Source: Bdellovibrionales bacterium
GTDB taxonomy: Bacteria; Bdellovibrionota; Bdellovibrionia; Bdellovibrionales; UBA1609
Reading direction: 5' to 3'
Assembly (NCBI GenBank): GCA_965116155.1
Contig: OZ220488.1
Span: 1,304,318-1,368,317, forward strand
Length of the DNA stretch: 64,000 nucleotides
Shown: piece after piece, positions 36,478 to 53,104 of the stretch
Layout of the letters: the number at the start of each line of letters is the position of its first letter
Numbering within the stretch: the first letter of the stretch is position 1
The notes under the pieces: generated by a model
The model's input: only the letters and a program-made list of their open reading frames with translations
Databases searched by the model: none
Told to the model about the DNA's origin: nothing
Program-made: the position numbers and the translations under genes

Positions 36478-36495
36478 GCCCCGCAGAATATTGGG

Positions 36496-37320
36496 CTAGC
36501 GCTCTAATTGTATTGGGATGCCTCTTTTTTTGCAAAATGCCTTGGTATCTTCAAGGTTTTCAGTACGGTACTCAGATTCCGGTTTGCTGCTCTCAAAGGC
36601 AAAATACTTGGGGCAAATAAGGCGGTGGGTGAGCTCTCTTACATGCTCTACACACTGTTCGTGGTTATAAAATTTGTCGTTTTTTTCTCTTAAAGTAAAG
36701 CTTGTAAAGCTAAAACCTCTATGGGCAAAGAACTCTCTAGCATATGCAGGAGATGCGAGATCGGGGCTAGGCACCAAATCTAAGAGCTTGTACCTGAAAA
36801 ACTTTGCTGTGTTGTCCTGCATTAGAAAGAAAAAATTAATAACAGAATTAAGGGATTTTGAGGCACAAACATCACCGCTTAAAAATAAAAATCTCGAAAA
36901 CTCATGGTACGAACCAAGGCTTGTGTGTATCAAAAAACTCATGTGCTGTCGCAAGTTAGAATAAAAGCTCTTTGACTCAGGCGCATTAGGATTTTGCATG
37001 TATTGCCTATAGCTTTCTGATAAATGGGACTCCATAAAATTTACGGCAGCAGCTCCCCCCTCTTTAGAAAACACACTCAGAAAATCCAAAGCCAATGCGT
37101 TTTGAGGCCACTTATTGGCATAGTCTAGCAGCGCCCTAGTAGCACGTTTTTTGTAGATGCCTTGCATGTTTGAAATAGTTTTGAAAACAGTCTTAGCGCG
37201 CGGGTTGCTTCGCCAAGCCTTTTTGGCGGCTTTTTTGTTGAGTATAATATCACTGGCATTAGCACTTGCCACCGTACCCGATCCCAAAACTAATAGCAAA
37301 ATTAAACCTAATGCTCGCAT
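36496..37320 (-). CDS. Secreted protein, unknown function (divergent from metzincin 1)
   Basis: ORF 36496..37419. The ATG at 37320 gives a signal peptide (MRALGLILLLVLGSGTVASA). AT-rich. The stop TAG lies inside CTAGCGCTCTAA (36496-36507). Confidence 0.5.
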   Translation of the reverse strand: MRALGLILLLVLGSGTVASANASDIILNKKAAKKAWRSNPRAKTVFKTISNMQGIYKKRATRALLDYANKWPQNALALDFLSVFSKEGGAAAVNFMESHLSESYRQYMQNPNAPESKSFYSNLRQHMSFLIHTSLGSYHEFSRFLFLSGDVCASKSLNSVINFFFLMQDNTAKFFRYKLLDLVPSPDLASPAYAREFFAHRGFSFTSFTLREKNDKFYNHEQCVEHVRELTHRLICPKYFAFESSKPESEYRTENLEDTKAFCKKRGIPIQLER

Positions 37321-37491
37321 CTTTGATCCCTCCCTATTTTGTTGTCGTTGTGACTTTGTATTTAAAAAAACATCAAACTGCATGCTGCATCGTCCCATCC
37401 TGCTGAGGGCTCCCCGCATTGCGTCAACAAGGCCTAAAAAAAGCTTAAAAAGCTGCTATTTTTTGGTGCTGTCTTTTAAAAGTAAAGTTCC

Positions 37492-38274
37492 ATGCTAAAA
37501 AAATACCGTCTTGTACTTATGGCAGTGGCAGTGCTTTTTGTAGAAGCCGTGCAGGCGAAAGAGCCATACTGCGCATCGCCGGATATCACGCCTACGTTTT
37601 ATGGCGGCACCCATGCAGTGGCCCGATATGTAAAACTCATAGGGGGTATCGTTTTTTATGTGAGTCCTACTTTAGACAAGCGTTTTCATGAAGACATAAA
37701 AGCAGCAGCTAAAACCTGGAATGAGCACCTGCCTCAAGGCGCCCAAATTGCTCTTACTTTTTCACAAGCTAAATGGCGCAGTAAAATAAAAACACAAAGC
37801 GGCAAAGCAATGGCGATCATCCTAGAGCATGCTGGCGGCGTACTGCAACGCTTGCTGCGCACAGACTCACCTAATCTGCTAGAGGATCATAGTGACTTCT
37901 TGCCTGGTGGTACCATAGGCTCTGTAGAGATAGACCCTGCGCCCCCGTTGTTGCGCAAAAATCTTGAAGATATTCTCGCATACGCGATACCTTTTTTATC
38001 GCAGATTTTTATTAACAATGTTGATCATCAGTTTTATGTAATGCAAAAAATAGACGCATTCCAAGACAAGCAGCCCTTTTACGGAACCATACTCCATGAA
38101 ATGGGGCATACCCTAGGCCTAGACCACAATGACCACGACCCTAACAGCGTAATGTCTCGGCAAACATCAAGGCTGGCGCGCTTGAGTGACTCTGACATTA
38201 GGGCGATCCGCTGTGCTTATGGCATGGGCCCTCCTCGACCCTCTTTAAAGTCTTTTGCGGTGCCTGCCCCATAA
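37492..38274 (+). CDS. Secreted metzincin zinc metalloprotease (matrixin/M10-like), paralog 1
   Basis: 260 aa with a signal peptide. HEMGHTLGLDHNDHDPNSVMS (HExxHxxGxxH plus Met-turn). Conserved N-terminal KEPYCASPDITP and C-terminal SDIRAIRCAYG are shared with the two paralogs. Confidence 0.8.
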   Translation: MLKKYRLVLMAVAVLFVEAVQAKEPYCASPDITPTFYGGTHAVARYVKLIGGIVFYVSPTLDKRFHEDIKAAAKTWNEHLPQGAQIALTFSQAKWRSKIKTQSGKAMAIILEHAGGVLQRLLRTDSPNLLEDHSDFLPGGTIGSVEIDPAPPLLRKNLEDILAYAIPFLSQIFINNVDHQFYVMQKIDAFQDKQPFYGTILHEMGHTLGLDHNDHDPNSVMSRQTSRLARLSDSDIRAIRCAYGMGPPRPSLKSFAVPAP

Positions 38275-38374
38275 ACAACTCCTTAAACACATAAACAATA
38301 GGATTTGACATAGGTTTATGTGGTGCTCTACAAGAGTTGGTTAGAAAACACTTTTCTAGCAAGGAGCCAAGATT

Positions 38375-39016
38375 ATGCAGATTGGGCGCAAACTTTTAAC
38401 ACACGGCGTTTTGGTGCTGGTTTTTGGCGTAGCGGGGTTAAGCCCAGCAGCACAGGCTGAGCCTGTTGAGGGTTTGAGCAAGCACGCTGTAGCCTACGCA
38501 TATATGCAGCGCGTGCTTGAGCAATGCGCTGAAGATGCAGCTGTAGACTTGGAGCAAGCGCGCAAGAATGTGGGCGCGCTCACATCTTTAGGAGGCTTTT
38601 ACGGTGCTGCGGTGGCCTTGCTGATCTCTGGGTTTGTGACAGATTTTAAGCCCTTCGTGTGGGGTGTGCCCGTGAGTGCTGCGGTGGGGTTTGTTGGAGG
38701 TGGTTTTGCGGCATATTTTCTCTTTAGGGGGCAAGTTGATAAGCATGCAGCCTCAAGTGTCTTGGGGGAGCAGGCTCAGGCCTACCCAAGGTGCCATGGG
38801 CTTTTTGAAGTGACTTTAGAAAGTGGCAGTGTGTTTTTACAAGAGCGCGGAGGACCTTTTGGTATGCGGTGCCTTTTGGATTTGGATGTTGAGATGGATC
38901 TTTCCAGCTTGCCTGATAATACAGGTTTATTGAAGCAAAATGTTTCTTCTGTAGGCAGCTTAGAAAACACCATACTCCCACTGCCCATCCAGTACGAAAC
39001 CTGCGAGTTAATTTAA
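38375..39016 (+). CDS. 213-aa signal-peptide + two-TM protein with Cys-containing C-terminal domain (metzincin-associated partner, copy 1)
   Basis: Signal peptide (..SPAAQA-EP) and two Gly-rich TM helices. C-terminus ..CHGLFEVTLESGSVFLQE..MRCLLDLD..LPLPIQYETCELI. Paralog of 49952..50593, which has the same length. Confidence 0.6.
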   Translation: MQIGRKLLTHGVLVLVFGVAGLSPAAQAEPVEGLSKHAVAYAYMQRVLEQCAEDAAVDLEQARKNVGALTSLGGFYGAAVALLISGFVTDFKPFVWGVPVSAAVGFVGGGFAAYFLFRGQVDKHAASSVLGEQAQAYPRCHGLFEVTLESGSVFLQERGGPFGMRCLLDLDVEMDLSSLPDNTGLLKQNVSSVGSLENTILPLPIQYETCELI

Positions 39017-39369
39017 AAAGTGCGTAAGCTGTATAGGTCGTAAAAACTCTTTAAGGCTTACGTTTCGCCCCCTTACATGACACCCACTACGGGGGCCAAG
39101 GGGGCTTCACTTACTGCTTAAAGAGTTTTTACTAGCGCTTTAATTGGGCGTAAGCATCAGAGTGCTAGTAAAACAAACTTGGCCAGTAAGTGCAGTCCCA
39201 AGGCGACCATACTCCCGTCAAAGCCCCGTGCATTGAGTAAACTCAAGTTAGAGCGCTGTGGCTTGCTATTCTAGTCGACGCTGAAGCACTGTCTAAACAC
39301 CTGTAATTGTTGTTAATTTTGTTGATATTTGGGGTTCTGTTTTTGCAGGGTTTTGTGTGTTTTAGGTGA

Positions 39370-39810
39370 AGCTGTCTAGTGCACAAAAATGCCTCAGGCA
39401 GGCCCACTTGTCCCGTAAGGATAAAAGCGCCAGCAAAAACACTTTGATCAGAGACGCAGACACATTGGCAGCCCCTGCAAGGGGCGCCAGCCAAGGTGGC
39501 AAGCGAGGCTCCCATTCAAAGTGTTTTTGCGCGCTAGACAGCTATCAACGCGCCGGTAGCTTTGGACGATCTGTAGGTCCAAAGCGTACACACTCTCGTA
39601 GATGGCCCGCGCCCAAGGTGCGTAAGCATAAAAGTGGCCCCTTGAAATCTTGGGCGGATAGCGAAGCCACCTGCGCCCCTTTATGGGGTGCTAAGCAGGT
39701 GGTAAGCGGAGAGCCCCAAAATTTCAAGGGAAAACTAGATAGCTACCGGCGCTATCAGATAGACTGCGTAGGGCTGAAGTCATTTTTGTTGGCACTTTTA
39801 TGCTTACGCC
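39370..39810. repeat. Y-type element carrying two nested insertions (filled form of the 128-bp element at 55053-55180)
   Basis: Same termini and arms as 55053-55180 (AGCTGTCTAGTGCACAAAAATGC.TCAGG ... GCTGAAG.CATTTTTGTTGGCACTTTTATGCTTACGC) but 441 bp long. Confidence 0.8.
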
Positions 39811-39948
39811 AAAAACCTGCAAAATAAGCGGCCCTCTAGTGCACGGAATATTAACCTTGCAGAGGTTTTGCGTGTTAGCCCCTTGTGCTGAAGTATGTTC
39901 TCCGGCTGACTCTGGTGTAAGTTAGAGCGCTAGTAAAATTCTCTGAGG

Positions 39949-40081
39949 TAGAGTGCGTAAGCATAAAAGTGTTAGTGAGGGCGCCCTGGCCAGAGAGCGC
40001 AGCCTGCTGACACACCTTTAGGTGTGCAAGGCAAGCGGTCTAAGCCAGGGTGCCCTCACGCGCTGGATAAAGCGGCGGCGC
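39949..40081. repeat. 133-bp hairpin element, copy b
   Basis: 2 mismatches to 10962-11094. Absent from the corresponding position of composite copy 1 (about 16368). Confidence 0.9.
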
Positions 40082-40215
40082 GCTGATAGCCCCAACGGGG
40101 CGACGATCAGGGTGCCAAGCGTCTTACAGAGAATTTTGCGACCTATAAGGGATCTGCGTGCCTGTAAGATACAGTATTAAAACCCTAATGTGGCATGAAT
40201 ACGCGACAGCCGGAA

Positions 40216-40340
40216 GTGCGTAAGCATAAAAGTGTTAGTGAGGGCGCCCTGGCCAGAGAGCGCAGCCTGCTGACACACCTTTAGGTGTGCAAGGCAAGCG
40301 GCCTAAGCTAGGGCACCCTCACGTGCTGGATAGCTTTTCC
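40216..40340. repeat. 133-bp-family hairpin element, copy c (about 6 differences, different 3' tail)
   Basis: GTGCGTAAGCATAAAAGTGTTAGTGAGGGCGCCCTGG...CTAGGGCACCCTCACGTGCTGGATAG. Interrupts CAGCCGGAA^GCCGGAGAACAT, which is intact in copy 1 at 16511-16530. Confidence 0.85.
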
Positions 40341-40364
40341 CCGAAGAACATACTTCAGTCACGA

Positions 40365-41279
40365 CTATTTTAGTACTCGCACGATTTTAACAGGGCCATG
40401 GGTTGGGATTTCAAGAAGGGCCAGCACCTTTGTGCTAGTGCCATTTATAACTTGCACCATAATACTTTTTTTTGCCCTATGGGCCTCTCGTTGCAAGGGT
40501 ACTAAGCGTTTTTCTAAACCCACCGGCAACTGCCCATGGGCTAACAAGCGTGCATCTAAACCCGCAACGCAAAATTCACGAAAACCCGGCCTCAAAGCCA
40601 CCCGCAAATCTACAAAGCCCCTTCCTGCCAGAGCTTTGGGCGACTCTTCCAGCTCCTCTAAAGACAAAGCTTCCTCCACCCTCCAGGGCCCCACGCGCGT
40701 GCGCCTTAAGTTGCTGAGCACCGCACCCACACCCAAGCGTTGTCCCAAGCTATGCGCCCACGATCTAACATAAGAGCCACTGCTACAACTGAAGCTCCAC
40801 GTAGCCTGAGGCCACGCAGAAGCCGCAAGCCGTTTTATGCCCTTAAAACACATAGGCCTCACAATGCGGGGCACATCCATCCCCTTGCGTGCCTTTTTAT
40901 ACAAAGCCTCACCACCAGACTTGACGGCCGAAAAAGCCGGCACCTCTAGCTCTACAGTGCCCGACAAGTGTTTTTGCACCACTGTATCTACATGCTCCCA
41001 ACCTGGGCTAGGAGCCTTTGCTTGCTCTAACACTCGGCCCGAAATATCCCAAGTGTCTGTTACTAAGCCAAACTGCACCTTGGCCACATAGCTTTTGTCT
41101 TGCGCCAACATATAGCGCGCCACTTTAGTGGCAGGGCCCAAAAGTACCAGCATTAAGCCTGTGGCCAAAGGATCTAAAGTGCCGCTGTGCCCTACTTGCT
41201 GAATAGACAAAGCCTTACGCACACGGGCCACCACTTTGTGACTGGTGATGCCAGCCGGCTTATCAATTAACAAAAGCAT
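40365..41279 (-). CDS. truB: tRNA pseudouridine(55) synthase
   Basis: 304 aa. LLLIDKPAGITSHKVV, catalytic GHSGTLDPLATGLMLVLLG. The stop codon lies inside the terminal TAGTCG.. of the composite repeat. Confidence 0.9.
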   Translation of the reverse strand: MLLLIDKPAGITSHKVVARVRKALSIQQVGHSGTLDPLATGLMLVLLGPATKVARYMLAQDKSYVAKVQFGLVTDTWDISGRVLEQAKAPSPGWEHVDTVVQKHLSGTVELEVPAFSAVKSGGEALYKKARKGMDVPRIVRPMCFKGIKRLAASAWPQATWSFSCSSGSYVRSWAHSLGQRLGVGAVLSNLRRTRVGPWRVEEALSLEELEESPKALAGRGFVDLRVALRPGFREFCVAGLDARLLAHGQLPVGLEKRLVPLQREAHRAKKSIMVQVINGTSTKVLALLEIPTHGPVKIVRVLK

Positions 41280-41800
41280 TAATTGCCTACAACGATCTCT
41301 ATAGGCGAGGGTCGGGCTTTGGCAAACTCCATATTTTTATCTTCTTGATGAGGGTTTTGTACTACGGCATAAAAGCTCGCCCCCAACTCCATAAGCTTGT
41401 GGGCCTTGTCGCTAGGACTTAACACCCCATAATGACCCGGGCTCTTGGGGCTGCGCACAATGCGCGCCCTTTTGATACTTGCTTGTCCCTCTGGCTTGCC
41501 TGCATCCAAGGCATATAAATCCACCACTCCATAAGCCCCTAAGACTGAGTCTATGCTTTTAAAATTCACCAACTCCACAGGCACTAGCACATGCCCTTTA
41601 GGAATAAAAGTCGCAATCGGCTTATCGGGCTCTGCTTTTGGAGCGCTATCTTCAGCAGAACCTAAGTCGTAAATCAAAGCTAAAGCAAACACTCCCCCCA
41701 CTAAAGCCGCAATAATCCCCTTAGCTTTGGTGGTTTGTGTTTCGCCCACCATGCCATCTAAAAAGGCTGTAATCATTTTTTGCAATTTTTTGTAAAGCAT
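41279..41800 (-). CDS. Membrane-anchored protein, unknown function
   Basis: 173 aa with one N-terminal TM (GIIAALVGGVFALALIY). TAATG overlap with the truB start. No family recognised with confidence. Confidence 0.45.
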   Translation of the reverse strand: MLYKKLQKMITAFLDGMVGETQTTKAKGIIAALVGGVFALALIYDLGSAEDSAPKAEPDKPIATFIPKGHVLVPVELVNFKSIDSVLGAYGVVDLYALDAGKPEGQASIKRARIVRSPKSPGHYGVLSPSDKAHKLMELGASFYAVVQNPHQEDKNMEFAKARPSPIEIVVGN

Positions 41801-41803
41801 GTG

Positions 41804-42010
41804 TTAACTCACAGTCTTAAACAGGTGCTGTTTTTGTAACTCTAAAAAAATCACCTCCCCCACGCCCCAAATGGCAAAACAAAAAACCATCAGCGAGCAA
41901 AATACCACTAAAAACTCCCACACCACAACGCCTTTGTCACAAATCCCTAAAATGCTTGGTGCTCGCAGGCTGGGTGTATTTTTAGTATTAGCAGGCTTTT
42001 TTTGTGTCAT
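41804..42010 (-). CDS. Possible small membrane protein
   Basis: ORF 41804..42052. The ATG at 42010 gives 68 aa with one long hydrophobic segment. Overlaps the fadD 3' end by 23 nt. Weak support. Confidence 0.3.
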   Translation of the reverse strand: MTQKKPANTKNTPSLRAPSILGICDKGVVVWEFLVVFCSLMVFCFAIWGVGEVIFLELQKQHLFKTVS

Positions 42011-43742
42011 TGTTTTTTGTCTCCAGAAGTTTACGCCGCAGTACTTTGCCAATAGGGCTCTTAGGCAGTTCTGATTTGATCTCTAAGCCTCTAGGAGTTT
42101 TATAAGCCACCAGTTTGTCGCGGCAAAATTTTTGCAAATCCGGCAAATCCAGCGACGCGCCTTGTTTTAACACGGCAAACACCTTTACGCTTTCTCCCGT
42201 TTTAGGGTGTGGCACACCTACGGCTGCAATCTCCGCCACAGCAGGGTGCTGCATGCAGATATCCTCAACCTCGTTAGGGTACACATTAAAGCCCGATACC
42301 AAAATCATGTCCTTTTTACGGTCCACTAATTTTACATAACCATCATCCGCTACTGATGCTACATCCCCCGTACGTAACCAGGACTCTTGCAAAACTTTGG
42401 CGGTTTCTTCAGGGCGCTCCCAATAGCCCTGCATCACCTGCGGGCCCTTTACCCAGAGCTCGCCAGGCTCTGTACCTTTGACATCCTCCCCCTTGTCGTT
42501 AACTACACGAACCTGTGTCGAGGGCACTGGCAAGCCTACAGTGCTAAGGCGGTTTTTTGCTGGATCAAAAGGGTTCACGCAAACAACAGGCGAAGCCTCA
42601 GTCAGGCCATAGCCTTCTACAATGTACTGGCCAGTGATTTGCTTCCAATGCTCTTGCACCTGCGACTGCACCGCGGCGCCACCCCCTACAGAGATTTTGA
42701 GCTTTGAGAAATCTAAAAGCCTAAATTCCTCCCTGTTACACAAAGCCGCAAACAGAGTGTTGACACCCGTAAAAACCGTAAAAGGAGTTTTGCTTAAAAC
42801 CTTTGTAAAAGCCTCCATGTCCCTGGGATTAGGAATCAAAACACTCTTTGCTCCCTGGCGCAACATGCACAGCCCATTCACCACGAGAGCAAAAATATGG
42901 TACAGAGGCAAAGCCGTAATCACCACCTCTTTGCCGGGCTCTAATATTTTGTCTAAACCCCAATGGTGCACTTGCAGCATATTGGCGCAAACATTACGGT
43001 GCGACAGCATCGCCCCCTTAGACACACCCGTTGTGCCACCCGTGTATTGCAAAAAAGCCAAATCCTCAGACAGTATGTGGGGCTTTTTTAGCGGGCGGTA
43101 GGCGCCTGCCTTTAAGGCCTGCGGCAAGTTATAGCTTTGGGGCAAGTTATAAGCAGGGACCATTTTTTTAACTTTGCGCACCGCCCAGTTTGTGAGCATT
43201 CCCTTGGGCCAAGGCATTAAGTCTCCCACCTGCGCTGTTACTGCATGCTGCAAAGGAGTTTGGTCCCATATGTTTTGCAGTTTGTGCGCAAAGTTTTCAA
43301 AGATCACAATAGCCTTGGCGCCAGAGTCTTTTAGCTGATGCTGCATCTCGCGCTCGGTGTACAGAGGGTTAACATTTACCACAACCAAGCCCGCACGCAA
43401 GGCGCCTATTAGAGCCACAGAGTAGCTGAGTATATTGGGTAGTTGCAGGGCTATGCGATCGCCTTTTTCAAGGCGCAGGACATTTTGCAAAAACCCCGCA
43501 AACTGCAAAGATTTTGCATCGAGCTCTTTGTAACTCAGCTGCGCCCCCATGCACTCTAGAGCCGGTGCACTGGCAAAGCGCTTAAAGGCGGTTTCAATCT
43601 CCTGCACTAAGTTAATGTCTTGAGGCAGTTCGATATTATGAGGCACTCCCTCAGAGTAACTTTTAAGCCATTGTTTTGCTTCTATCATCACCCATGTCTC
43701 CCCTTTTTTGTTTTTTGCGCGGTCTTTAACTCTTTTATGCAA
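41988..43742 (-). CDS. fadD: Long-chain-fatty-acid--CoA ligase (AMP-binding family)
   Basis: 584 aa. AMP-binding motif YTGGTTGVSKGAMLSHRN, then GYGLTE, TGD and K at the C-terminal motif (GKVLRR). Confidence 0.85.
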   Translation of the reverse strand: MHKRVKDRAKNKKGETWVMIEAKQWLKSYSEGVPHNIELPQDINLVQEIETAFKRFASAPALECMGAQLSYKELDAKSLQFAGFLQNVLRLEKGDRIALQLPNILSYSVALIGALRAGLVVVNVNPLYTEREMQHQLKDSGAKAIVIFENFAHKLQNIWDQTPLQHAVTAQVGDLMPWPKGMLTNWAVRKVKKMVPAYNLPQSYNLPQALKAGAYRPLKKPHILSEDLAFLQYTGGTTGVSKGAMLSHRNVCANMLQVHHWGLDKILEPGKEVVITALPLYHIFALVVNGLCMLRQGAKSVLIPNPRDMEAFTKVLSKTPFTVFTGVNTLFAALCNREEFRLLDFSKLKISVGGGAAVQSQVQEHWKQITGQYIVEGYGLTEASPVVCVNPFDPAKNRLSTVGLPVPSTQVRVVNDKGEDVKGTEPGELWVKGPQVMQGYWERPEETAKVLQESWLRTGDVASVADDGYVKLVDRKKDMILVSGFNVYPNEVEDICMQHPAVAEIAAVGVPHPKTGESVKVFAVLKQGASLDLPDLQKFCRDKLVAYKTPRGLEIKSELPKSPIGKVLRRKLLETKNNDTKKAC

Positions 43743-43943
43743 GTGTGTGGTTTGGGGCGCCAGTAGTACTGTCTCTCATCCATACCAGACCTACATGGAC
43801 ACAGTATAAGCTGCACTAGTAAAAAACAGCTACGCCGCACAGCGTAAAAGCTATGCGCAAGAACGCCAGTCTTTCGTTTCACTATGCCTGCCTGGCAGGG
43901 CCCGAAGGGTCCGGATACCAGGCGGGCCAATAACAACTGGGAA

Positions 43944-43991
43944 CCATAAAAGCACATCTCACACTATTAGGTGTGAGATGTGCTTTTATGG
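43944..43991 (-). terminator. Perfect 21-bp-stem hairpin overlapping the last codons and stop of the LolC/E-like gene
   Basis: CCATAAAAGCACATCTCACAC-tattag-GTGTGAGATGTGCTTTTATGG. The stop (43967-43969) is in the loop. The arm sequence is related to the hairpin at 48606-48655 and to the ..GCATAAAAG.. repeat terminus. Confidence 0.55.
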
Positions 43992-45154
43992 TCACGCCTT
44001 AGAATCCAGGCTAAGAGTAGGCATAGGCTTCCTACGCCCAAAAAAATGCCTGAGCTCGGCTCAGAGGGCAGGGTGGTGTCGTAGTAAATATCGGGCAGTA
44101 TGTCTAAGGGCCACCATTTTAAATAAAACGCTACTCCCGCGCCCCAAAAAATGCCCGCTACTGCACTAAGGGCAAAAAGCCAAAAGCTGATATTAGCAAA
44201 AATCAGGCCCAGTTGTTTTTGCGGCACCCCTAGAGCGTGCAGGATTTTAATGTCTTGTTTTTTTTGCGTTAAAAGCAAAGCCTTTAAGCCAAATACAGAA
44301 AAAGAAGTAATCAAAACACTTAGCACCAAGAACAGCGCGATGAGTATTTTTTCGATCCTTAAGGCATAAAACAGCAGCCGGTTGCGCTCGGCCCAGCTTT
44401 TAATGCTAAATTCCGCCCCCTGCATGGATAGGCTTTTGCTCCACATGGTTTTCAAGCGCTCTGCCTTGTGGGGGTTTGTAAGCCACAGCTCAACGCCATG
44501 CATTTTAGTACTGCCCCAGCGGAAGTTAAAATGCTTCGACCCCATGGGGTAAAATACAAAGCCTTGAGGCTGCTCGCTAGAGTCCTCTAAAACCCGAGCC
44601 ACTTGAACTGCGTTAAAATTCAACCCATCCCCTATGGGTAGCAGTAGGTTTTCGCTGGGTGCTATAAGCAGCTCTTCGCCGACAAAGCTTATCAAGCGCT
44701 GGGCTAAAAAAGATCCCAACACCACCTGCTTGGGGGTGAGCTTTGCGCTCGTGCCATTACCTGCGTCATTATCTGTGCCATTATTGGGGTAGAGCTTTTG
44801 CAAATCCTCTTGCGGCAAGGCCTTAGCGATGGCTCCGCTAAACAGCCCCTCGTGATTTAAAACTATAATATCTTGCTCTGCAAAAGGGCGTGCGTAAGAG
44901 TAGTGCGGCAGAGCTTTGGCTGTGGCTAAAGCTTTATCGGCACGGGCCTTGCTGGAGCTTTGCAGCACCAAGTGCGCTTCGCGCTTTAGTAGTTTTTTTT
45001 GCAAGCTCTGATTAAAACCATTTACCACGCTTAAGCACAGCACCAAGGCGCCCACCGCTATGCACACCGAGGCTCCACTAAGGCGCATAAGGGTTTTTAT
45101 GACCGAGTGCGCGCGGGGCGAAAAAGCATAACGCAAAAAAAGCTCTAAACTCAT
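43967..45154 (-). CDS. LolC/LolE-type (FtsX/MacB-like) ABC transporter permease
   Basis: ORF 43967..45268. The ATG at 45154 (MSLELFLRYAFSPRAHSVIKTL..) matches the family N-terminus and removes the overlap with the divergent gene. Four TMs, a large periplasmic loop and an FtsX-type C-terminal 3-TM bundle. Confidence 0.75.
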   Translation of the reverse strand: MSLELFLRYAFSPRAHSVIKTLMRLSGASVCIAVGALVLCLSVVNGFNQSLQKKLLKREAHLVLQSSSKARADKALATAKALPHYSYARPFAEQDIIVLNHEGLFSGAIAKALPQEDLQKLYPNNGTDNDAGNGTSAKLTPKQVVLGSFLAQRLISFVGEELLIAPSENLLLPIGDGLNFNAVQVARVLEDSSEQPQGFVFYPMGSKHFNFRWGSTKMHGVELWLTNPHKAERLKTMWSKSLSMQGAEFSIKSWAERNRLLFYALRIEKILIALFLVLSVLITSFSVFGLKALLLTQKKQDIKILHALGVPQKQLGLIFANISFWLFALSAVAGIFWGAGVAFYLKWWPLDILPDIYYDTTLPSEPSSGIFLGVGSLCLLLAWILRRDHKSTSHT

Positions 45155-45250
45155 TAGGGCGCTGGGGTTATTTGACAGCTTGTTTGACAGCTTGGTGTCT
45201 TTGGTGTTTGCTGTGGCGGTATGGGGTAACTCTGGCGGCATATAAAGTTT

Positions 45251-45961
45251 ATGGACAAGTTTACGCAAAAATTCACCCCCACTGTACAGGTTTTCACCCG
45301 CAACTCACAAGGCCTGCCTGTGGTGGGTTTTGCTTTTTCAAAAACTCCACGCGTCTCATCTAAAGTGCTGGGGCCCAAGGTGCTGGTGTTGGGGGGAGTG
45401 CATGGGGACGAGCCTGAGGGCATAGCAGCTGCTTGGGGCTTAATTGATAGCTGTTATGGCAGTATGCCTGATGTGGAGCTTTTGATTATGCCCGTATTTA
45501 ATCCTTATGGAGCCATGCATGCGCGCCGGCAAAACGCGGCCGGGGTGGATCTTAACCGCAATCTGCCTTCGCAAGACTGGAGCCCTCAGCCCACTAAGCC
45601 CAAATACCAACCGGGCCCCAAGCCTGCAAGCGAGCCCGAAACCCAAGCCCTGGTGCAGCACTTGGCTCAGGCGCAGACACGGCCGGATATTATTATCTCT
45701 CTACACTCTTGGCATCCTATGCTAAACACCAACGGAGACTGCAGCCCCGTAGTGGAGCGCATTGCAGAGGTAACGGGGTATAAAATCACGCCCGACATCG
45801 GTTACCCTACGCCGGGTAGTTTGGGCGCTTATTGTCAGGAGCTGGGGGTGCCTTGCTTGACTTACGAGATCGAGCGCGGCTTAGCATTAGAGCGGGTTAT
45901 TTTGCAGCATGTGCCTGCTTTGCAAGAGGGTTTAAAGGCCATGGCAAAAGGCCGCACTTAG
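45251..45961 (+). CDS. M14-family zinc carboxypeptidase / murein peptide amidase (MpaA-like)
   Basis: 236 aa. GGVHGDEPEG (HxxE zinc site), NPYG, GVDLNRN, LHSW. Confidence 0.7.
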   Translation: MDKFTQKFTPTVQVFTRNSQGLPVVGFAFSKTPRVSSKVLGPKVLVLGGVHGDEPEGIAAAWGLIDSCYGSMPDVELLIMPVFNPYGAMHARRQNAAGVDLNRNLPSQDWSPQPTKPKYQPGPKPASEPETQALVQHLAQAQTRPDIIISLHSWHPMLNTNGDCSPVVERIAEVTGYKITPDIGYPTPGSLGAYCQELGVPCLTYEIERGLALERVILQHVPALQEGLKAMAKGRT

Positions 45962-45979
45962 CAACTAAGAGGAGCGCAG

Positions 45980-46789
45980 ATGAACTTAGAAGACCGCATT
46001 CAAAGCGTGGCGCAAAAGGGCGCAAGCTGGCAGCCCACTGCAGACGAGGCCAAGTGGGTGCAGGAGGCTATTGCGCTTTTAGATAGCGGCGCCAAAAGGG
46101 TGTGTGAGGTTTTGCCGGATTCTTCTTTGCGCGTGCACAAGTGGTTGCAGCAGGCAATTTTGCTGTATTTTAAAATTCAACCTATGCAAAAAACTAAGGC
46201 TGGCGATTTGCATTTTTACGATAAAGTCCCACTCAAGCGCCCCGCCCCCGGGGTGCGGGTGGTGCCTCCTGCAACGGTGCGCTACGGGGCTTTTGTAGAA
46301 TCCGGCGCTGTGCTGATGCCTTGTTATATTAACATTGGCGCGCGTGTGGGTGCGGGCACCATGGTAGACACCTGGGCCACTGTGGGCTCGTCAGCTCAAG
46401 TGGGGCGCCGGGTGCATCTTTCGGGTGGTGTAGGCTTAGGCGGAGTGTTGGAGCCCCTAGGGGCGCAGCCTGTTGTCATAGAGGATGATGTTTTTTTAGG
46501 TTCGCGTGCTGTTGTGGTGGAGGGAGTGCGGGTCCGCAAAGGCGCCGTTATAGGCGCAGGTGTTGTGCTGACGGCTTCTACCCCGATTATTGATGTGAGC
46601 GGGGGTGTAGAAAAAACCTACAAAGGCGAAGTGCCCGAAAACACCGTGGTCGTGCCTGGGCAAAGGCCTAAGACCTTTGCTTCTGGCAGCACGTATTCCG
46701 TGCCCTGCGCCCTTATTATTGGCAAGCGTCACAAGGGTACAGACCAAAAAACCGCCCTCAACGAAGCCTTGCGGAGCCACTCGCCATAA
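45980..46789 (+). CDS. dapD: 2,3,4,5-tetrahydropyridine-2,6-dicarboxylate N-succinyltransferase
   Basis: 269 aa. N-terminal helical domain followed by left-handed beta-helix hexapeptide repeats (INIGARVGAGTMVDTWATVGSSAQVG..IEDDVFLGSRAVVVEGV). Length and layout match DapD. Confidence 0.8.
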   Translation: MNLEDRIQSVAQKGASWQPTADEAKWVQEAIALLDSGAKRVCEVLPDSSLRVHKWLQQAILLYFKIQPMQKTKAGDLHFYDKVPLKRPAPGVRVVPPATVRYGAFVESGAVLMPCYINIGARVGAGTMVDTWATVGSSAQVGRRVHLSGGVGLGGVLEPLGAQPVVIEDDVFLGSRAVVVEGVRVRKGAVIGAGVVLTASTPIIDVSGGVEKTYKGEVPENTVVVPGQRPKTFASGSTYSVPCALIIGKRHKGTDQKTALNEALRSHSP

Positions 46790-46836
46790 ACCCCAAGCTA
46801 GTGTATGCTGGCTGTTGGGATTATCTGGAGGAATGC

Positions 46837-47163
46837 ATGATCAAGCTCAGTGCCAAGGCATGCGCGCGCATTAACAACCTGCGTCAAGAAGAGGGTGCGG
46901 GTGCGGAGGATTATTTGCGTATAGAGGTCAAGCGGGGTGGGTGTAGTGGTTTTTCTTACAAAATGTCTTTTGACAAAAACAGAGCTCCGCACGACCATGT
47001 GTTTGCTCAGCAGGATGTGCAGATTGCGGTGTCTAAGGAGCACATTTTGTATCTAGCGGGTTTAGAGCTCGATTATCAAGGGGGCCTTAATGGGCAGGGG
47101 TTTGTTTTTGACAACCCCAATGCTTCTAAAAACTGCGGCTGTGGCACATCGTTTGCCGTTTAG
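46837..47163 (+). CDS. Iron-sulfur cluster insertion protein (HesB/IscA/ErpA family)
   Basis: ORF 46801..47163. The ATG at 46837 is preceded by GGAGG. VKRGGCSGFSY and the C-terminal CGCGTSF signature. Confidence 0.85.
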   Translation: MIKLSAKACARINNLRQEEGAGAEDYLRIEVKRGGCSGFSYKMSFDKNRAPHDHVFAQQDVQIAVSKEHILYLAGLELDYQGGLNGQGFVFDNPNASKNCGCGTSFAV

Positions 47164-47175
47164 GGGGTTTGGCCA

Positions 47176-48633
47176 ATGAGTAATATGCATTTTATTGCTG
47201 GGGGTGGGGGCAAAGGGCCGGGCAATACGCCGTTGCGTGGTGCTATGGTGCCGCCGCCGTATAGGATTAAGAGCGTGGAGCCTATACGGTTGCTGAGTTT
47301 TAAGGAGCGGCAGGAGCATATCCGTGCGGCTCAGTTAAATGTGTTTGCTTTGCCGGCGCATAGTGTTTATGTGGACCTGCTTACAGACTCTGGCACAGGG
47401 GCGATGAGCCATAACCAGTGGGCGGCTATTATGCGTGGCGATGAGTCTTATGCTGGCAGTCGTAGTTTTGAGCGCTTAAGACAGAGCGTGCAAGACCTAT
47501 GGGGGCATGGGGTGGTGTTGCCGGCCCATCAAGGGCGGGGCGCGGAGCATGTGTTGTTTTCTTGTGTGCTATCTGGGGGGGGGAAGTTTTTTGTTCCCAA
47601 TAATACGCACTTTGATACTACGCGCGCTAATGTTGAGCAGCTAGGTGGCACGGCTGTGGATTTGCCTTGTAAGCAGAGTACCGATTTGCGCAGCGAGTAT
47701 CCGTTTAAGGGCAATATGGACTGCGAGGCTTTGGAGAATCTGCTAAAGCGTTACGGTTCGCAGGGTGTGCCGGTTGTGATGATGACTTTAACTAACAACA
47801 GCTGTGGTGGGCACCCGGCGAGTTTGGAAAATCTGCGTCAGGTGCGGCGCATAGTGGACTCTTACGGGGCGATGTTATTTTTGGATGCATGCCGGGTTTC
47901 GGAGAATGCGTTTTTTATTAAAAAGTACGAGCCGGGTTTTGCGCAAGTGGGTGTGCGGGAGATTTTGCGTCAAATTTTAAGCCTGGCTGATGGTTGCACG
48001 ATGTCAGCTAAAAAGGACGCCATTGTAAACGTGGGGGGTTTTATTAGTTTAAAGACTAATAAAAACCCTTTGTACGAGGCTTTGTGTGAAAAACTTATTT
48101 TGTACGAGGGCTTTAAGACCTACGGTGGTTTGGCGGGGCGCGATTTAGAAGCCATTGCGGTGGGTTTGCAAGAGGGTGCAGACGAGGCTTATTTGGAACA
48201 CCGTATAGAGCAGGTGGCTTTGCTCGCGCGTTTGTTAGAGGCTGCGGATATTAAGACGGTGCGGCCGACGGGGGGGCATGCGGTGTATGTGGATGCGGCG
48301 CACTTTTTGCCGCACTTAAAGCCAGAGGAGTTTCCTGGGCAGGCTTTGGCGGTGGCTTTATATGTAGAGGGTGGTGTGCGTGCTGTAGAGGTGGGATCGT
48401 TGATGTTTGATAAGAGTGCGGCGCATGAGATGCTGCGCTTAGCGGTGCCGCGTCGTGTTTATACCAATGAGCATATTTTGTACGTAGCAGAGTGTTTTAA
48501 AAGGCTTTACAAAAAGCGCTCTAGTATTAGGGGTGTGCGTTTGGTTAAAGAGCCTAAGTGTTTGCGGCATTTCACCGCCCAAATGGAGTGGGTCGCAGCT
48601 GAGAGGCATAAAAGCCAACTCTCACGCCTTTAG
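47176..48633 (+). CDS. Beta-eliminating lyase (tryptophanase / tyrosine phenol-lyase family, PLP-dependent)
   Basis: 485 aa. PPYRIKSVEPIRLLS.. N-terminal block, DLLTDSGT, PLP-lysine block MSAKKDAIVNVGGF. The last 8 codons (HKSQLSRL*) are encoded by the left arm of a repeat-family hairpin. Confidence 0.8.
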   Translation: MSNMHFIAGGGGKGPGNTPLRGAMVPPPYRIKSVEPIRLLSFKERQEHIRAAQLNVFALPAHSVYVDLLTDSGTGAMSHNQWAAIMRGDESYAGSRSFERLRQSVQDLWGHGVVLPAHQGRGAEHVLFSCVLSGGGKFFVPNNTHFDTTRANVEQLGGTAVDLPCKQSTDLRSEYPFKGNMDCEALENLLKRYGSQGVPVVMMTLTNNSCGGHPASLENLRQVRRIVDSYGAMLFLDACRVSENAFFIKKYEPGFAQVGVREILRQILSLADGCTMSAKKDAIVNVGGFISLKTNKNPLYEALCEKLILYEGFKTYGGLAGRDLEAIAVGLQEGADEAYLEHRIEQVALLARLLEAADIKTVRPTGGHAVYVDAAHFLPHLKPEEFPGQALAVALYVEGGVRAVEVGSLMFDKSAAHEMLRLAVPRRVYTNEHILYVAECFKRLYKKRSSIRGVRLVKEPKCLRHFTAQMEWVAAERHKSQLSRL

Positions 48634-48655
48634 GCGTGAGAGTTGGCTTTTATGC
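48606..48655 (+). terminator. Perfect 24-nt-arm palindrome overlapping the 3' end of the lyase gene
   Basis: GCATAAAAGCCAACTCTCACGCCT-tt-AGGCGTGAGAGTTGGCTTTTATGC. The right arm plus TACGC is repeated at 48749-48777. Confidence 0.6.
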
Positions 48656-48780
48656 TACGCGCTGCTATTTGGCTCGCCTGGGGACCGGCGCCGGTGGCGC
48701 CTGCCAGGCAAGCATGGTGATACGACAGTTTGGCAGTTGTGCCTTTAAGGCGTGAGAGTTGGCTTTTATGCTACGCACTA

Positions 48781-48909
48781 CAGGCTCATAGATCCCTTAT
48801 AGGCCGCAAAATAACCTTGAGGCTGCCGTTTGTCCTCTTGGCTAACGTCTCTTGCAGAGGCTGCCAAGGGACTGCTTTTGAGCTCAAGGTTATTTTGCTA
48901 GCGCTCTAA
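48781..48909. repeat. X-type hairpin element (CAGGCTCATAGATCCCTTATAGGCCGC - AAAATAACCTTGAG ... CTCAAGGTTATTTT - GCTAGCGCTCTAA)
   Basis: Read directly. Core CTTGGCTAACGTCTCTTGCAGAGGCTGCCAAGG. Ends 1 nt before the stop of the minus-strand metzincin 2. Confidence 0.9.
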
Positions 48910-48910
48910 C

Positions 48911-49690
48911 TTATGAAGGTTCCAAGGCAGTGCCGTATGCACAACGAATGGCCGCAATGTCAGAATCTCCTATGCGCTGCAAGTGCCTTGAAACTTTGGG
49001 GTTCATTATACTTTTAGGGTCTTTCGTATTGTGATTCAGGCCTAGTATATGCCCCATTTCATGAAGCATTAGATTAAGAAAGGAGTATTGTTTCCAAACC
49101 TTAGATTTGTCTTGAGTAGCATAAAACTGGAAGTCGCGATCGTTGACCCATATTTGCGACCACAACCCGGCCCGCGCATACCCAACGGCTTCGCCTTTTG
49201 CATAAGTGAAAGTAGAAGCTACAAGAGGGTCCTCCCATATAGAACCTATGCGGCCATATCCTAGCTGTACGTTGGGGCGAGCTTGGCCAAATGGATCGTG
49301 TGTTTGATCATATGGCTCCTCACGAAGGGGCTGCATTGATAAAAAAGCAGGCACCTGTGAAAAAGAGGCCACCAGCTCTAGCAGTTGGAGCATTTTGCTG
49401 GTCTTTATTTTGCTGCGCCACTCGTCGTGTGAAAAAGCGATCTCAATTTGAATGTCTGCAGGCAAGTGCTCATTCCATGCATTAGCGGCTGCTTGTATGT
49501 CTTTGTGAAAACGCTTGTCTATAGAGGGGCTCACATAAAAGACTAAGCTCTTTGTGATTTTGACATATTGAACCACTGCACCACCCCAAAAAACAGGTGT
49601 GATGTCAGGCGACGCGCAGTGTGGCTCTTTCGCCCAGATGATTTTCCCACACAGCACTGTAGCGATAAACAACAGACCAAGCTGTTTCAT
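48911..49690 (-). CDS. Secreted metzincin zinc metalloprotease, paralog 2
   Basis: 259 aa with a signal peptide. KEPHCASPDITP, HEMGHILGLNHNTKDPKSIMN, SDIAAIRCAYG. Confidence 0.8.
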   Translation of the reverse strand: MKQLGLLFIATVLCGKIIWAKEPHCASPDITPVFWGGAVVQYVKITKSLVFYVSPSIDKRFHKDIQAAANAWNEHLPADIQIEIAFSHDEWRSKIKTSKMLQLLELVASFSQVPAFLSMQPLREEPYDQTHDPFGQARPNVQLGYGRIGSIWEDPLVASTFTYAKGEAVGYARAGLWSQIWVNDRDFQFYATQDKSKVWKQYSFLNLMLHEMGHILGLNHNTKDPKSIMNPKVSRHLQRIGDSDIAAIRCAYGTALEPS

Positions 49691-49951
49691 CTTTATCTCC
49701 CATTTTTGTCACCCAATTTAAGAGCGTGGCAAAAATCGTGCCAATTGTTAAGGCTAATGAGTATGTATGGAGTGGGTTTGGCGTTTTTGTGCCCGGTGGT
49801 TAATTGCTTCCTGGCTGTCTTTTAGATCACACACAGCTGAAGCTCCAGTGGCAGGCCTCCCGCGTAAAACTTTAAAAAGTCAGCAAGGGCAAAAAGTTGC
49901 AGCTCGTTGCACTTGCCTTAGGACGAACGCAAAATTAGTACAGCGAATAAT

Positions 49952-50593
49952 TTAAATTAATTCGCACGTCTCGTACCGGATAGGTAGTGGGAGGATGGTT
50001 TGTTCTAAGCTGTCTACAGAAGAAACACTTTGCTGGAATGGGCTTGTACCTTTTGGCAAGCCGGCAAGATCAATCTCCATATCTAAAAGGCACCGAATCC
50101 CAAAAGAGCTGTCTTGCTCTTGCAATAACACTTTGCCATTTTCTACAGTCACTTGAAATAACCCATGGCACTCCGAGTAGGCCTTAGATGGCTCACCCGA
50201 TACACTCGATACGTCAAAAGTATCAATCGCAGTATCATCAGTATAAAAATATGTCGCAATACCAGTACCTACAAAAGCTATCGGTATGCTCCATCCGATC
50301 GATCTTGACCTAAAAAATTTCGTAAAAAGTCCGCCAACACCTATGCTAGCGGCAGTCAGAGTGGCAAAAAATAGGCCTACCACAAAAGGAGCCTGCCCCT
50401 TGGTCTCGCGCACTAATTCTAACTTTGCGGCTGCATCTTGGGAGCACCGCTCAAGCGTTTGCTGCATATACGCGTAGGCTATAGCCTGTTTATCCGGGCT
50501 CTTTGCAGGTGCCGCCTGTACCGAGCCAATTCCGCCAAACCCCAAAATAAAAGCCAACACACATCGATTAAAAGCTTTGCACCCACGCTTCAT
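49952..50593 (-). CDS. 213-aa signal-peptide + two-TM partner protein, copy 2
   Basis: Same length and architecture as 38375..39016. C-terminus ..CHGLFQVTVENGKVLLQE..IRCLLDMEIDL..LPLPIRYETCELI. Confidence 0.6.
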   Translation of the reverse strand: MKRGCKAFNRCVLAFILGFGGIGSVQAAPAKSPDKQAIAYAYMQQTLERCSQDAAAKLELVRETKGQAPFVVGLFFATLTAASIGVGGLFTKFFRSRSIGWSIPIAFVGTGIATYFYTDDTAIDTFDVSSVSGEPSKAYSECHGLFQVTVENGKVLLQEQDSSFGIRCLLDMEIDLAGLPKGTSPFQQSVSSVDSLEQTILPLPIRYETCELI

Positions 50594-50841
50594 AACAACA
50601 CCGCTCCTTTATTTTCATACACAAGTCTCTCTCTTACTACAGGTACGGAGGGGATGGAAGGGGTTTTTATTTTAACGCGGTGCGCGGGCCTTTGACAGCA
50701 GTGTGATTTCTAAAGACCTTAAGTGATGACTCTGCCAGGGGTCGATCTGTTGTGATTGGCACGTATTTTGCTAAGTGTTTGGTGCTTTAGTTACAATGGA
50801 GCCACTTTTGGGCACTACATGTGTTGCAAAAACTTTAAAAA

Positions 50842-51807
50842 ATGGAAGTCCAGATGAGCCTTATGAAAAATTACGCCCTTGCCTTAATATGTACAGCGAC
50901 CATGCTGCTTTGCAAAAGCCTATGGGCGAACGAACCTTATTGCGCATCGCCTGATATCACGCCCACAATGTATGACGGTGCTGTAGCTCAATATGTCACG
51001 TTTTTAGGGGGGCTAGTATTTTATGTCACTCCTGAGGTAGATGCCCGTTTTCATGCAGACATAAAGGAGGCAGCCAAAGTGTGGAACCAGCACTTGCCTC
51101 AAGGTGCTCAAATTGAAATCACCTTTTCAAAAGACGAATGGCGTAGAAAAACAAACGTAAAAAGCGGCAAAGTGATTGCGCTCATCCTAGAGCATGCCAG
51201 CCATTTGGTGGGTTTCCTAGCTCGTACTCTACGAGATCGTACAGGCCCGACTAATCAGGATCATAATAGATTCGTGCCTAGTGGTACCATAGGCCCTACG
51301 GGAATAGACCCTTTGCTTTACTGGTCGAACAGGGGCATTGAACACGATACCGCCGCATACGCAAAACCTTTTTTTTCACAAATTTTTATCAACAACCGTG
51401 ACCACCATTTGGTAAATCAAATAACAGGTACATCCCATGAGGAAGTGTTTTTTTATGAAATCATACTGCATGAAATGGGGCATACCCTAGGCCTGGATCA
51501 CAATGACCAAGATCCTAGCAGCATAATGACTAGGTACAGCGATAAGCCTACAAAAGCGCTTGCACGCTTAAGTGGGTCTGATGTTAGGGCCATTCGCTGT
51601 GCCTATGGCATGGCTCCTTTGGAGCATTTCGAGACGCCAAAGCTAGAGAGCGCTCCTGAAGATCCTTTATTAAATGATGTGGCACCTCCTAAAGGAGACC
51701 TTCCTTTGATTAGTTACAATAGAGATAAGGTGCTAAAAATTTTAGAGCAAATCGCAGCGCTAGAGTCCGAGGCTTTTAACCATCTAGGTGAATCTGAAGC
51801 ACTCTAA
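50842..51807 (+). CDS. Secreted metzincin zinc metalloprotease, paralog 3 (with about 60-aa C-terminal extension)
   Basis: 321 aa. NEPYCASPDITP, HEMGHTLGLDHNDQDPSSIMT, SDVRAIRCAYG. Start may be ATG 50854. Confidence 0.8.
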   Translation: MEVQMSLMKNYALALICTATMLLCKSLWANEPYCASPDITPTMYDGAVAQYVTFLGGLVFYVTPEVDARFHADIKEAAKVWNQHLPQGAQIEITFSKDEWRRKTNVKSGKVIALILEHASHLVGFLARTLRDRTGPTNQDHNRFVPSGTIGPTGIDPLLYWSNRGIEHDTAAYAKPFFSQIFINNRDHHLVNQITGTSHEEVFFYEIILHEMGHTLGLDHNDQDPSSIMTRYSDKPTKALARLSGSDVRAIRCAYGMAPLEHFETPKLESAPEDPLLNDVAPPKGDLPLISYNRDKVLKILEQIAALESEAFNHLGESEAL

Positions 51808-51903
51808 TTTGTATTTACTAGAAACACGAGACTTTAACGGGAATATCGCGGCTACGGGCCTTTGACGGGAGTGTGGTCGCTTCGGGCCTTTGGCCCTTCG
51901 CTA

Positions 51904-52027
51904 TAGGCTTGTAGATGCTTCATAGGTCGCAAAATTCTCTGTAAGACGCTTGGCACCCTGATGGCCGCCCCGTTGGGGCTATCAGTATGCCGTCGCTTAA
52001 CTTCAGAGAATTTTACTAGCGCTCTAA
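51904..52027. repeat. X-type hairpin element (near-duplicate of 29503-29636) whose terminal CTAGCGCTCTAA carries the pseudopilin stop codon
   Basis: ..GTAGATGCTTCATAGGTCGCAAAATTCTCTGTAAGACGCTTGGCACCCTGATGGCCGCCCCGTTGGGGCTATCAGTATGCCG..CAGAGAATTTTACTAGCGCTCTAA. Confidence 0.9.
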
Positions 52028-52680: not shown

Positions 52681-52824
52681 ACTAACACGCGCAAGCGGCT
52701 TTGGCGCGTGCTGTCATTGACACAAAGTCTCTTATGTGGGTTTTATTGAGGCTCGTTGAGGGGCGCTAAAAAACTCCCCTCAAAAAACAACACAACCTTA
52801 CCAAGGAGATGGAAGGAGGCGGGT

Positions 52825-53103: not shown

Positions 53104-53104
53104 T

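Follow-up and report, generated by a model that had tools for sequence, protein, structure and literature searches.

Matrixin-type protease genes probably duplicated together with a new protein family of unassigned function in a Bdellovibrionales genome

When genes for exported proteases repeatedly stand beside genes for a small exported protein of a new family, do the two products act together, or have their genes merely been copied together? This question is raised by a locus at positions 37492-51807 of a 64,000-nucleotide (nt) stretch of DNA, hereafter the window, from a Bdellovibrionales bacterium (Bdellovibrionota; UBA1609; GenBank assembly GCA_965116155.1, contig OZ220488.1, positions 1,304,318 to 1,368,317 of the forward strand). 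A preliminary description of the locus had reported three paralogous metzincin genes together with two genes for a partner protein, and had suggested that the partner might be an inhibitor, an anchor or an immunity protein for the proteases. As judged by sequence comparison, the region comprises two lineage-restricted paralogous families that were duplicated together. Here, we present the evidence for the identity and history of the two families, and then weigh whether they are functionally coupled.

The three protease and two partner open reading frames (ORFs) are all confirmed at the coordinates and on the strands first reported (Table 1), as is their order: partner 1 follows protease 1 after 100 nt, while partner 2 lies upstream of protease 2 (261 nt) and divergent from protease 3 (248 nt). 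The protease motifs (K/N)EP(Y/H)CASPDITP, HEMGH(T/I)LGL(D/N)HN..DP.S(V/I)M and SD(I/V)(R/A)AIRCAYG are all found, and the partners have the length and the C-domain motifs that had been quoted. Paralogy within each family lies beyond chance, with a tblastn E of 3e-53 for partner 1 against partner 2 and pairwise identities of 47-58% among the three proteases. Protease 3 more probably starts at 50854, giving 317 residues, than at 50842, because the public gene call P0009 uses the former start, which has a GGAAG ribosome-binding site 6 nt upstream.

By profile comparison the proteases are metzincins, more precisely matrixin-type enzymes (Peptidase_M10, PF00413; MEROPS M10A-like), and the original metzincin assignment is upheld by Pfam, by profile matches to matrix metalloproteinases (MMPs) and by structural neighbours in Foldseek. 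The three proteases score 30, 36.2 and 38.7 bits against PF00413 (gathering cut-off 24), the match being limited to profile positions 102-159 of 159. All carry the extended zinc motif HExxHxxGxxH, and HEMGH(T/I/A)LGL(D/N/G)H is invariant across the four paralogs of this subfamily, the fourth of which (P0010) lies outside the window. In protease 1, the signal peptide ends at VQA, immediately before KEPYC, the zinc site reads HEMGHTLGLDHN, the Met-turn is SVM, and the invariant cysteines are Cys27 and Cys241. A profile built from the three proteases matches the catalytic domains of MMP-12, MMP-13 and MMP-2, with the zinc site, the Met-turn and the C-terminal helix all aligned; DP.S(V/I)M and SD(I/V).AIRCAYG align with DPKAVM and ADDIRGIQSLYG of MMP-12, showing both a Met-turn and a helix of the DDixgIqxlYG type. 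An AlphaFold2 (AF2) model of the protease has a mean predicted local distance difference test score (pLDDT) of 54, with values below 50 in the variable middle (residues 103-193). The top Foldseek neighbours of this low-confidence model are MMP-13, karilysin and snapalysin, at probabilities of 0.99-1.0 but with E of 6e-3 to 4e-2 and template-modelling (TM) scores of 0.34-0.37. Hydropathy and inspection of the sequences reveal signal-like N-termini with A-x-A cleavage sites and no lipobox, and the proteases are predicted to be exported by the Sec pathway. A long prodomain is missing: the first core strand begins about 28 residues after the predicted cleavage site, and in place of the animal MMP prodomain (about 80 residues with a PRCGxPD switch) the signal peptide leads directly into KEPYCASPDITP, which holds a PxCxxPD-like string only. 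In profile terms, these enzymes are new, divergent members of the matrixin family.

Enzymes with so short a leader might nonetheless be self-latent. The invariant cysteines lie at either end of the protease, one in the N-terminal segment PYCASPDITP and the other in the C-terminal helix AIRCAYG, and had been proposed to form a disulfide. Alternatively, PYCASPD directly after the signal peptide could be a minimal latency peptide resembling a cysteine switch rather than one half of a disulfide, in which case the enzymes would keep themselves latent and an inhibitor would be needless. The P-x-C-x-x-P-D spacing is the same as that of the MMP cysteine-switch motif PRCGxPD, the stretch from C27 to P34 is invariant in all four paralogs, and the distance to core strand I is short; moreover, there is a precedent in karilysin, a matrixin-like bacterial enzyme in which a profragment of only 14 residues confers latency (PMC4404884). 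The second invariant cysteine in the C-terminal helix and the even cysteine count of every mature paralog speak against the switch, as does the pattern among distant small matrixins, where the N- and C-terminal cysteines occur together (P0012) or not at all (P0011, P0013). This pattern favours the disulfide and lends the original proposal some support. The segment with the N-terminal cysteine (residues 18-42) is of low quality in the AF2 model. We rate the switch-like reading below the disulfide reading and consider it very doubtful.

The partner family has five members of 211-219 residues, namely partners 1 and 2 and three proteins encoded outside the window (P0003, P0004 and P0006). In partner 1, a signal peptide predicted to be cleaved between AQA and EP precedes a helix of about 35 residues that contains Cys51; a short basic turn between two Gly/Ala-rich hydrophobic segments follows, and then a C-domain holding Cys140, Cys166 and Cys210; partner 2 is nearly the same over the last 14 residues. 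All five begin with a signal-like N-terminus and a helix that holds one invariant Cys; next come one or two hydrophobic segments rich in Gly and Ala, set around a basic turn in which a Trp is invariant, and lastly a C-domain with three more invariant Cys (in C..GLF,.RCLL and YETC), making four in all; the cysteine count of every mature partner is even. Of the earlier proposal of a signal peptide followed by a transmembrane hairpin, the signal-like segment stands, while the two-segment hairpin is likely but uncertain, since partner 2 and P0006 show a single central hydropathy peak above threshold and P0004 has no central 19-mer above it. The claim that both soluble parts lie on the exported side also appears plausible: an N-out/C-out topology, with both soluble parts in the periplasm, the four invariant Cys exported and two disulfides formed, would be the most economical arrangement. 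An AF2 model from the five-sequence alignment (pLDDT 56.7) places helices at residues 36-87 and 98-129 as a hairpin, followed by a three-stranded sheet and a helix, although only the N-terminal helix and the C-domain (pLDDT about 70-77) reach moderate confidence.

As the preliminary description had stated, the partner family is not a recognised one. Searches with the partner returned no Pfam family at E <= 1, no NCBIfam or PADLOC family and no PDB sequence match, and Foldseek finds no fold in PDB or BFVD similar to the low-confidence model. A reading of the partner as a component of a defence system was set aside for want of a PADLOC match. By these searches the partner is a new protein family of unassigned function.

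Both families have a very narrow distribution. In an exhaustive HMMER profile search covering 1.84 billion cluster representatives, the only relatives of the two partners were P0003, P0004 and P0006, together with P0005, a spurious repeat protein; a word-index search with the partner returned the query itself only, and a profile word search only members from the same contig. All five partners and all four proteases are singletons encoded on one contig of 1,611,223 bp, the protease count coming from a word-index search that more divergent proteases could have escaped. GTDB species-representative genomes and JGI metagenomes yielded no relative of the partner, and for the protease either nothing or matches at the level of the zinc motif only. 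As a control, the housekeeping proteins of the window are likewise singletons at 90% identity. The nearest relative fetched, represented by two ENA assemblies (ERZ25067936 and ERZ25068270, contig_1 of each), shares with window positions 55242-62969 only the alternative complex III (ACIII) operon, at amino acid identities of 65% for ActA, 51% for ActB, 82% for ActC and 61% for ActD; within 10 kb, neither assembly has a protease or partner gene, and there is no synteny upstream of the operon. There, the relative carries ribonucleotide reductase and type II secretion system/secretin genes, while the window carries Tad-like and pseudopilin genes and the protease patch. The distance of this nearest relative and the singleton status of the housekeeping proteins indicate that the lineage is poorly sampled, and the restriction of both families to one genome may reflect fast evolution and sparse sampling rather than recent origin.

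Within the genome, the history of the locus can be read from synonymous divergence (dS). The dS between partners 1 and 2 (0.82) is close to that between proteases 1 and 3 (0.93), which points to their duplication as one unit, while protease 2 differs from proteases 1 and 3 at dS 1.4-2.0. The simplest history suggested by these values is a single duplication of a protease 1/3 ancestor together with a partner, followed by inversion of one gene, with protease 2 an older paralog next door; the adjacency of protease and partner was kept despite the relative inversion. Both families evolve under purifying selection, the ratio of nonsynonymous to synonymous divergence (dN/dS) being 0.22-0.34 among the proteases and 0.47 between the two partners. 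Two further observations concern the individual genes. Over the last 85 codons of the partner genes (38760-39016 and 49952-50210), dS is 0.44 as against 1.2 over the first 120 codons, suggesting either gene conversion between the partner paralogs or nucleotide-level constraint on the region encoding the C-domain. In addition, protease 3 and its sigma-54-type promoter lie between direct copies of a 36-nt repeat (75%; 50685-50720 and 51855-51890; inverted copy at 39194-39229), which hints that the gene was perhaps inserted or moved by recombination at the repeats.

The two families also appear to differ in their expression signals. Upstream of proteases 2 and 3 stand TTGGCACGATTTTTGCC (49729-49743, minus strand) and TTGGCACGTATTTTGCT (50757-50771, plus strand), which closely agree with the sigma-54 consensus YTGGCACGrNNNTTGCW (GG at -24, GC at -12) and are correctly oriented. 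Exact TGGCAC-N5-TTGC cores occur three times in the window against 0.43 expected, and the only two TGGCACG-N4-TTGC sites in the window are those before these two proteases, where a common 20/22-nt core is embedded in otherwise unrelated spacers. No such site lies upstream of protease 1 or of either partner; each partner gene is preceded by its own strong ribosome-binding site, AAGGAG. Since protease 2 has its own sigma-54-type promoter, it does not form a simple operon with partner 2, and at this second locus protease and partner are, by their putative promoters, separately controlled. Generic promoter and terminator scans gave counts equal to chance expectation. The third exact core, at 47142-47156 (plus strand), lies within the end of an IscA-like ORF and 20 nt upstream of a beta-eliminating lyase (tryptophanase-like) gene at 47176..48633, and may be another sigma-54 promoter or a chance match.

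A further, indirect link between the protease family and a partner-like protein may be provided by the partner-like ORF listed in Table 1. Its product runs from a signal peptide through a long N region and two hydrophobic segments to a C-domain that contains ..VRCL.. and ..EKTCTII, and the strings ..G.V..F....G..I.VRCL.. and ..TC.II match the layout of the partner family; the overall match to the partner profile is weak (hhalign E 0.25), with no hmmsearch match at E <= 10. The N region contains a motif of about 30 residues, PPxIDxPL...DPVLKLLEQ, which is also found in the C-terminal tails of protease 3, in the form APPKGDLPLISYNRDKVLKILEQ, and of P0010. A leave-one-out hidden Markov model of this tail motif retrieves the ORF at E 9e-6, the next best match being at 1.7.

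Comparison with known systems helps to define what a protease and an adjacent guard might look like. By analogy, the closest known system in logic is that of Tannerella forsythia, where the gene next to that of karilysin encodes its guard, potempin A (PMC9890683). Potempins are outer-membrane lipoproteins of 98-132 residues with an oligonucleotide/oligosaccharide-binding (OB) fold or an 8-stranded beta-barrel, and their genes overlap the peptidase gene or end at most 5 bp before it and are co-transcribed with it (PMC9890683). As in the pairs of KLIKK-peptidases and potempins, a matrixin-type protease with hardly any prodomain here stands beside a small, lineage-restricted, predicted membrane-anchored exported protein, with several paralogous or analogous pairs per genome. 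Unlike a potempin, however, the partner is 213 residues long, with a signal of the signal peptidase I type and no lipobox Cys at +1, and it has a two-segment hydrophobic hairpin and, in the low-confidence model, an alpha/beta C-domain. The gaps of 100-261 nt, the variable gene order, the separate promoter of protease 2 and the divergent orientation of protease 3 also differ, and Foldseek found no match for the partner in PDB, which includes PotA-karilysin (8b2q). Membership of the potempins was rejected, the partner being neither a lipoprotein nor a beta-barrel of 98-132 residues, and its gene neither within 5 bp of the protease gene nor part of a bicistronic unit.

The preliminary description had instead drawn on serralysins and their inhibitor Inh (AprA/AprI; MEROPS M10B and I38), where likewise an exported protein, one that protects the periplasm, is encoded beside a metzincin. 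This analogy fails on every membership feature, for protease and partner alike. Serralysins have RTX repeats and are exported by type I secretion without a signal peptide, whereas the proteases described here have signal peptides; a serralysin identity was rejected on these grounds and on scores of 16-18 bits against NF035945 (cut-off 500), and all NCBIfam models tried on the proteases, those of serralysins and others, fell far below their cut-offs. Inh is a soluble beta-barrel, whereas the partner is predicted to be membrane-anchored, and Inh-family identity was rejected on the empty Pfam (E <= 1) and PDB sequence and fold searches. More distant likenesses exist on both sides of the pair. Small bacterial matrixin lipoproteins of about 200 residues (PF00413; P0011-P0013) share the zinc site, the Met-turn and the C-terminal helix with the proteases, and P0012 also the Cys pair, but they are QAC-lipobox lipoproteins without the variable insert of about 70 residues, and the 24-26% identity covers the zinc-site region only (18-28% of the query). 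Eukaryotic TIMPs are comparable to the partner insofar as the partner, too, may be a disulfide-rich protein that inhibits the catalytic domain of a matrixin; TIMPs chelate zinc through their N-terminal Cys1, whereas the mature N-termini of the partners are unconserved and without Cys. Finally, the Bdellovibrio ankyrin protein Bd3460, which guards DD-endopeptidases, is an example of self-protection in a predatory bacterium and offers the concept of an adjacent immunity gene against one's own exported hydrolase, although enzyme class and fold differ.

Against this background, we tentatively favour, at somewhat less than an even chance, the reading that the genes form a lineage-specific cassette in which the partner, at the inner membrane, binds the exported protease or holds it in check; for functional coupling of any kind the chances are even, and the inhibitor or guard mode specifically is doubtful. 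In such a cassette, the partner would be an inner-membrane protein whose two soluble parts, stitched by two disulfides, reach into the periplasm, and would bind the freshly exported protease. Since the protease has no prodomain, the partner would most likely keep it inactive or retained until release, as a guard resembling an immunity protein or inhibitor. Proteases 2 and 3 would be induced separately through sigma-54 promoters and an enhancer-binding activator, and the partners would be transcribed on their own; the separate promoters and the independent transcription would fit a logic of guard first, protease on demand. The confinement of both families to the same contig at similar copy number (four proteases, five partners) speaks for such a cassette. 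Several findings weigh against it. The partner resembles no known inhibitor in sequence or in predicted fold (pLDDT 56.7), and the unconserved mature N-terminus makes zinc chelation in the manner of TIMPs or Inh unlikely. The gaps of 100 and 261 nt and the separate promoter disfavour tight co-translation, unlike the spacing of potempin genes. As both adjacencies probably descend from a single ancestral one, they do not count as independent evidence of linkage. The copy numbers are also not equal: outside the window there are three partners and one protease, so that a protease neighbour of this subfamily is missing for at least two partners, and also for the partner-like ORF. Moreover, none of 51 loci of distant matrixin-like genes in other genomes has a partner-like neighbour.

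Nearly as likely as the restraining cassette is a neighbourhood without coupling, in which the partner is an independent, fast-evolving envelope protein whose chance adjacency to a protease gene was duplicated in plastic, repeat-rich islands of low guanine-plus-cytosine (GC) content and kept by inertia. The single duplication leaves effectively one adjacency to explain, and the unequal copy numbers, the unaccompanied partner-like ORF, the separate promoter signals and the 51 loci without a companion all agree with mere neighbourhood, as does the setting of both patches, which are bracketed by palindromic repeats and have a GC content of 0.38-0.47 against 0.51-0.55 in the flanking housekeeping genes. 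Inertia accounts less readily for two families that are restricted to one lineage and expanded together, that are both predicted to be exported to the same compartment, whose adjacency has outlasted an inversion and a dS of about 0.9, and whose members or relatives share the 30-residue motif of the protease tails and the partner-like protein. A third account retains coupling without inhibition: the partner would be a membrane factor for docking, folding or retention, a dedicated foldase or anchor that presents or matures the protease at the surface of the inner membrane or passes it to an export machine. The tail motif, in its general form PPxxDxPL...DxVLxxLEQ, could be the docking element, since it occurs in protease 3 and P0010 as well as in the N region of the partner-like ORF; the predicted topologies place partner and protease in the same compartment, a two-segment hairpin anchor is unusual among known protease inhibitors, and pseudopilin and TadE-like genes directly adjoin the second locus. 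The motif is, however, missing from proteases 1 and 2, and Pfam, NCBIfam and PDB fold searches show no similarity of the partner to known foldases or chaperones. We consider the docking role quite unlikely. The boldest form of the guard proposal is that the partners are a new class of matrixin inhibitor, tethered in the inner membrane, stitched by disulfides, unrelated in fold to TIMPs, Inh, potempins and SSI-type inhibitors, and docked to the proteases through the PPxxDxPL...VLxxLEQ motif. We consider this unlikely; if true, such guards would shield the producer from its own prodomain-less, sigma-54-induced secreted proteases.

The surroundings of the locus are rich in repeats. The hairpin arrays first described are real: the core of the palindromic family, GCGTAAGCATnAnAGYGCTAGTAAAA, occurs 8 times in the window where 0 copies are expected, and the elements fold into long hairpins with almost perfect pairing (z -6.5 to -10.7). 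On either side of both patches lie arrays, at 34556-34723, 39040-39230, 39611-40340, 48606-48812 and 51854-52028. Further intergenic copies lie at 11371-11396, 16203-16228, 29610-29635, 54861-54886 and 55154-55179 (the arrays after partner 1 spanning 39040-40340), and the family looks like a genome-wide one resembling elements of the repetitive extragenic palindrome (REP) or miniature inverted-repeat transposable element (MITE) type. Searches of the non-coding repeat stretches for known RNA genes gave neither an Rfam family nor a tRNA. In the stretch at 39017-40364, a 118-nt unit occurs twice at 96% identity (39952-40069 and 40215-40332) and folds as an extended hairpin of about 85 nt (-71.7 kcal/mol, z -7.2). 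A translated intergenic repeat at 16491-16550 (minus strand) is 85% identical to the final 20 residues of P0004, whose gene apparently runs on into one copy of such a repeat.

Positions 34556-39230 form a low-GC island (0.38-0.45) between inverted repeats of 55-57 nt that are 93-98% complementary (34635-34689 with 39148-39202, and 34556-34612 with 39101-39157). The island holds a DUF6088/AbiEii type IV toxin-antitoxin pair (34819..35439 and 35426..36394), an orphan ORF, protease 1 and partner 1, and may be a mobile or recombination-prone cassette. The orphan was rightly described as AT-rich, with GC of 0.38-0.39 at 35-37 kb, and family searches with it (Pfam, NCBIfam, PADLOC) gave no match. 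Directly beside the second locus, at 52024-54150, are a gene for a GspH-like pseudopilin with a prepilin N-methylation motif and a TadE-like gene.

Table 1. Features of the protease and partner region (positions in the window)
Feature	Position	Strand	Description
Partner-like ORF	33869..34549	+	226 aa
AT-rich orphan ORF	36496..37320	-	274 aa from internal Met; signal-like N-terminus; divergent from protease 1
Protease 1	37492..38274	+	260 aa; predicted exported matrixin-type zinc endopeptidase; PF00413 E 5.8e-7, 30 bits vs cut-off 24
Partner 1 (P0001)	38375..39016	+	213 aa; AAGGAG ribosome-binding site
Palindromic-repeat non-coding stretch	39017..40364		1.35 kb between partner 1 and truB; no convincing ORF
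Palindromic repeat array	48606..48812		Downstream of protease 2; 24-bp perfect hairpin twice; z -10.65
Protease 2	48911..49690	-	259 aa; PF00413 E 7e-9; most divergent of the three
Putative sigma-54-type -24/-12 element TGGCACGATTTTTGC	49729..49743	-	In the 261-nt spacer between partner 2 and protease 2, 38 nt before the protease 2 ATG
Partner 2 (P0002)	49952..50593	-	213 aa; 48% identical to partner 1; AAGGAG ribosome-binding site
Putative sigma-54-type -24/-12 element TGGCACGTATTTTGC	50757..50771	+	70-82 nt upstream of protease 3 start
Protease 3 (P0009)	50842..51807	+	58% identical to protease 1, its closest; C-terminal tail of ~65 aa
Repeat array	51854..52028		Downstream of protease 3; related to copies 39194-39229, 39921-39949 and 40070-40166

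The scope of these findings is narrow, as one genome, from a sparsely sampled lineage, is the sole known source of both families. Should the two prove to be coupled, the locus would be a variant of the known theme of a protease with an adjacent guard. If the partner in fact binds and restrains the protease, the few bacterial inhibitors of matrixins would gain both a new fold and a mode of anchoring new to the group, by an inner-membrane hairpin; such inhibitors are of interest through the medical importance of MMPs, and the partner would also show how a bacterium handles exported metalloproteases that have no prodomain. The sigma-54-type elements, for their part, make proteases 2 and 3 candidate inducible factors, which may serve, for example, in feeding or predation.

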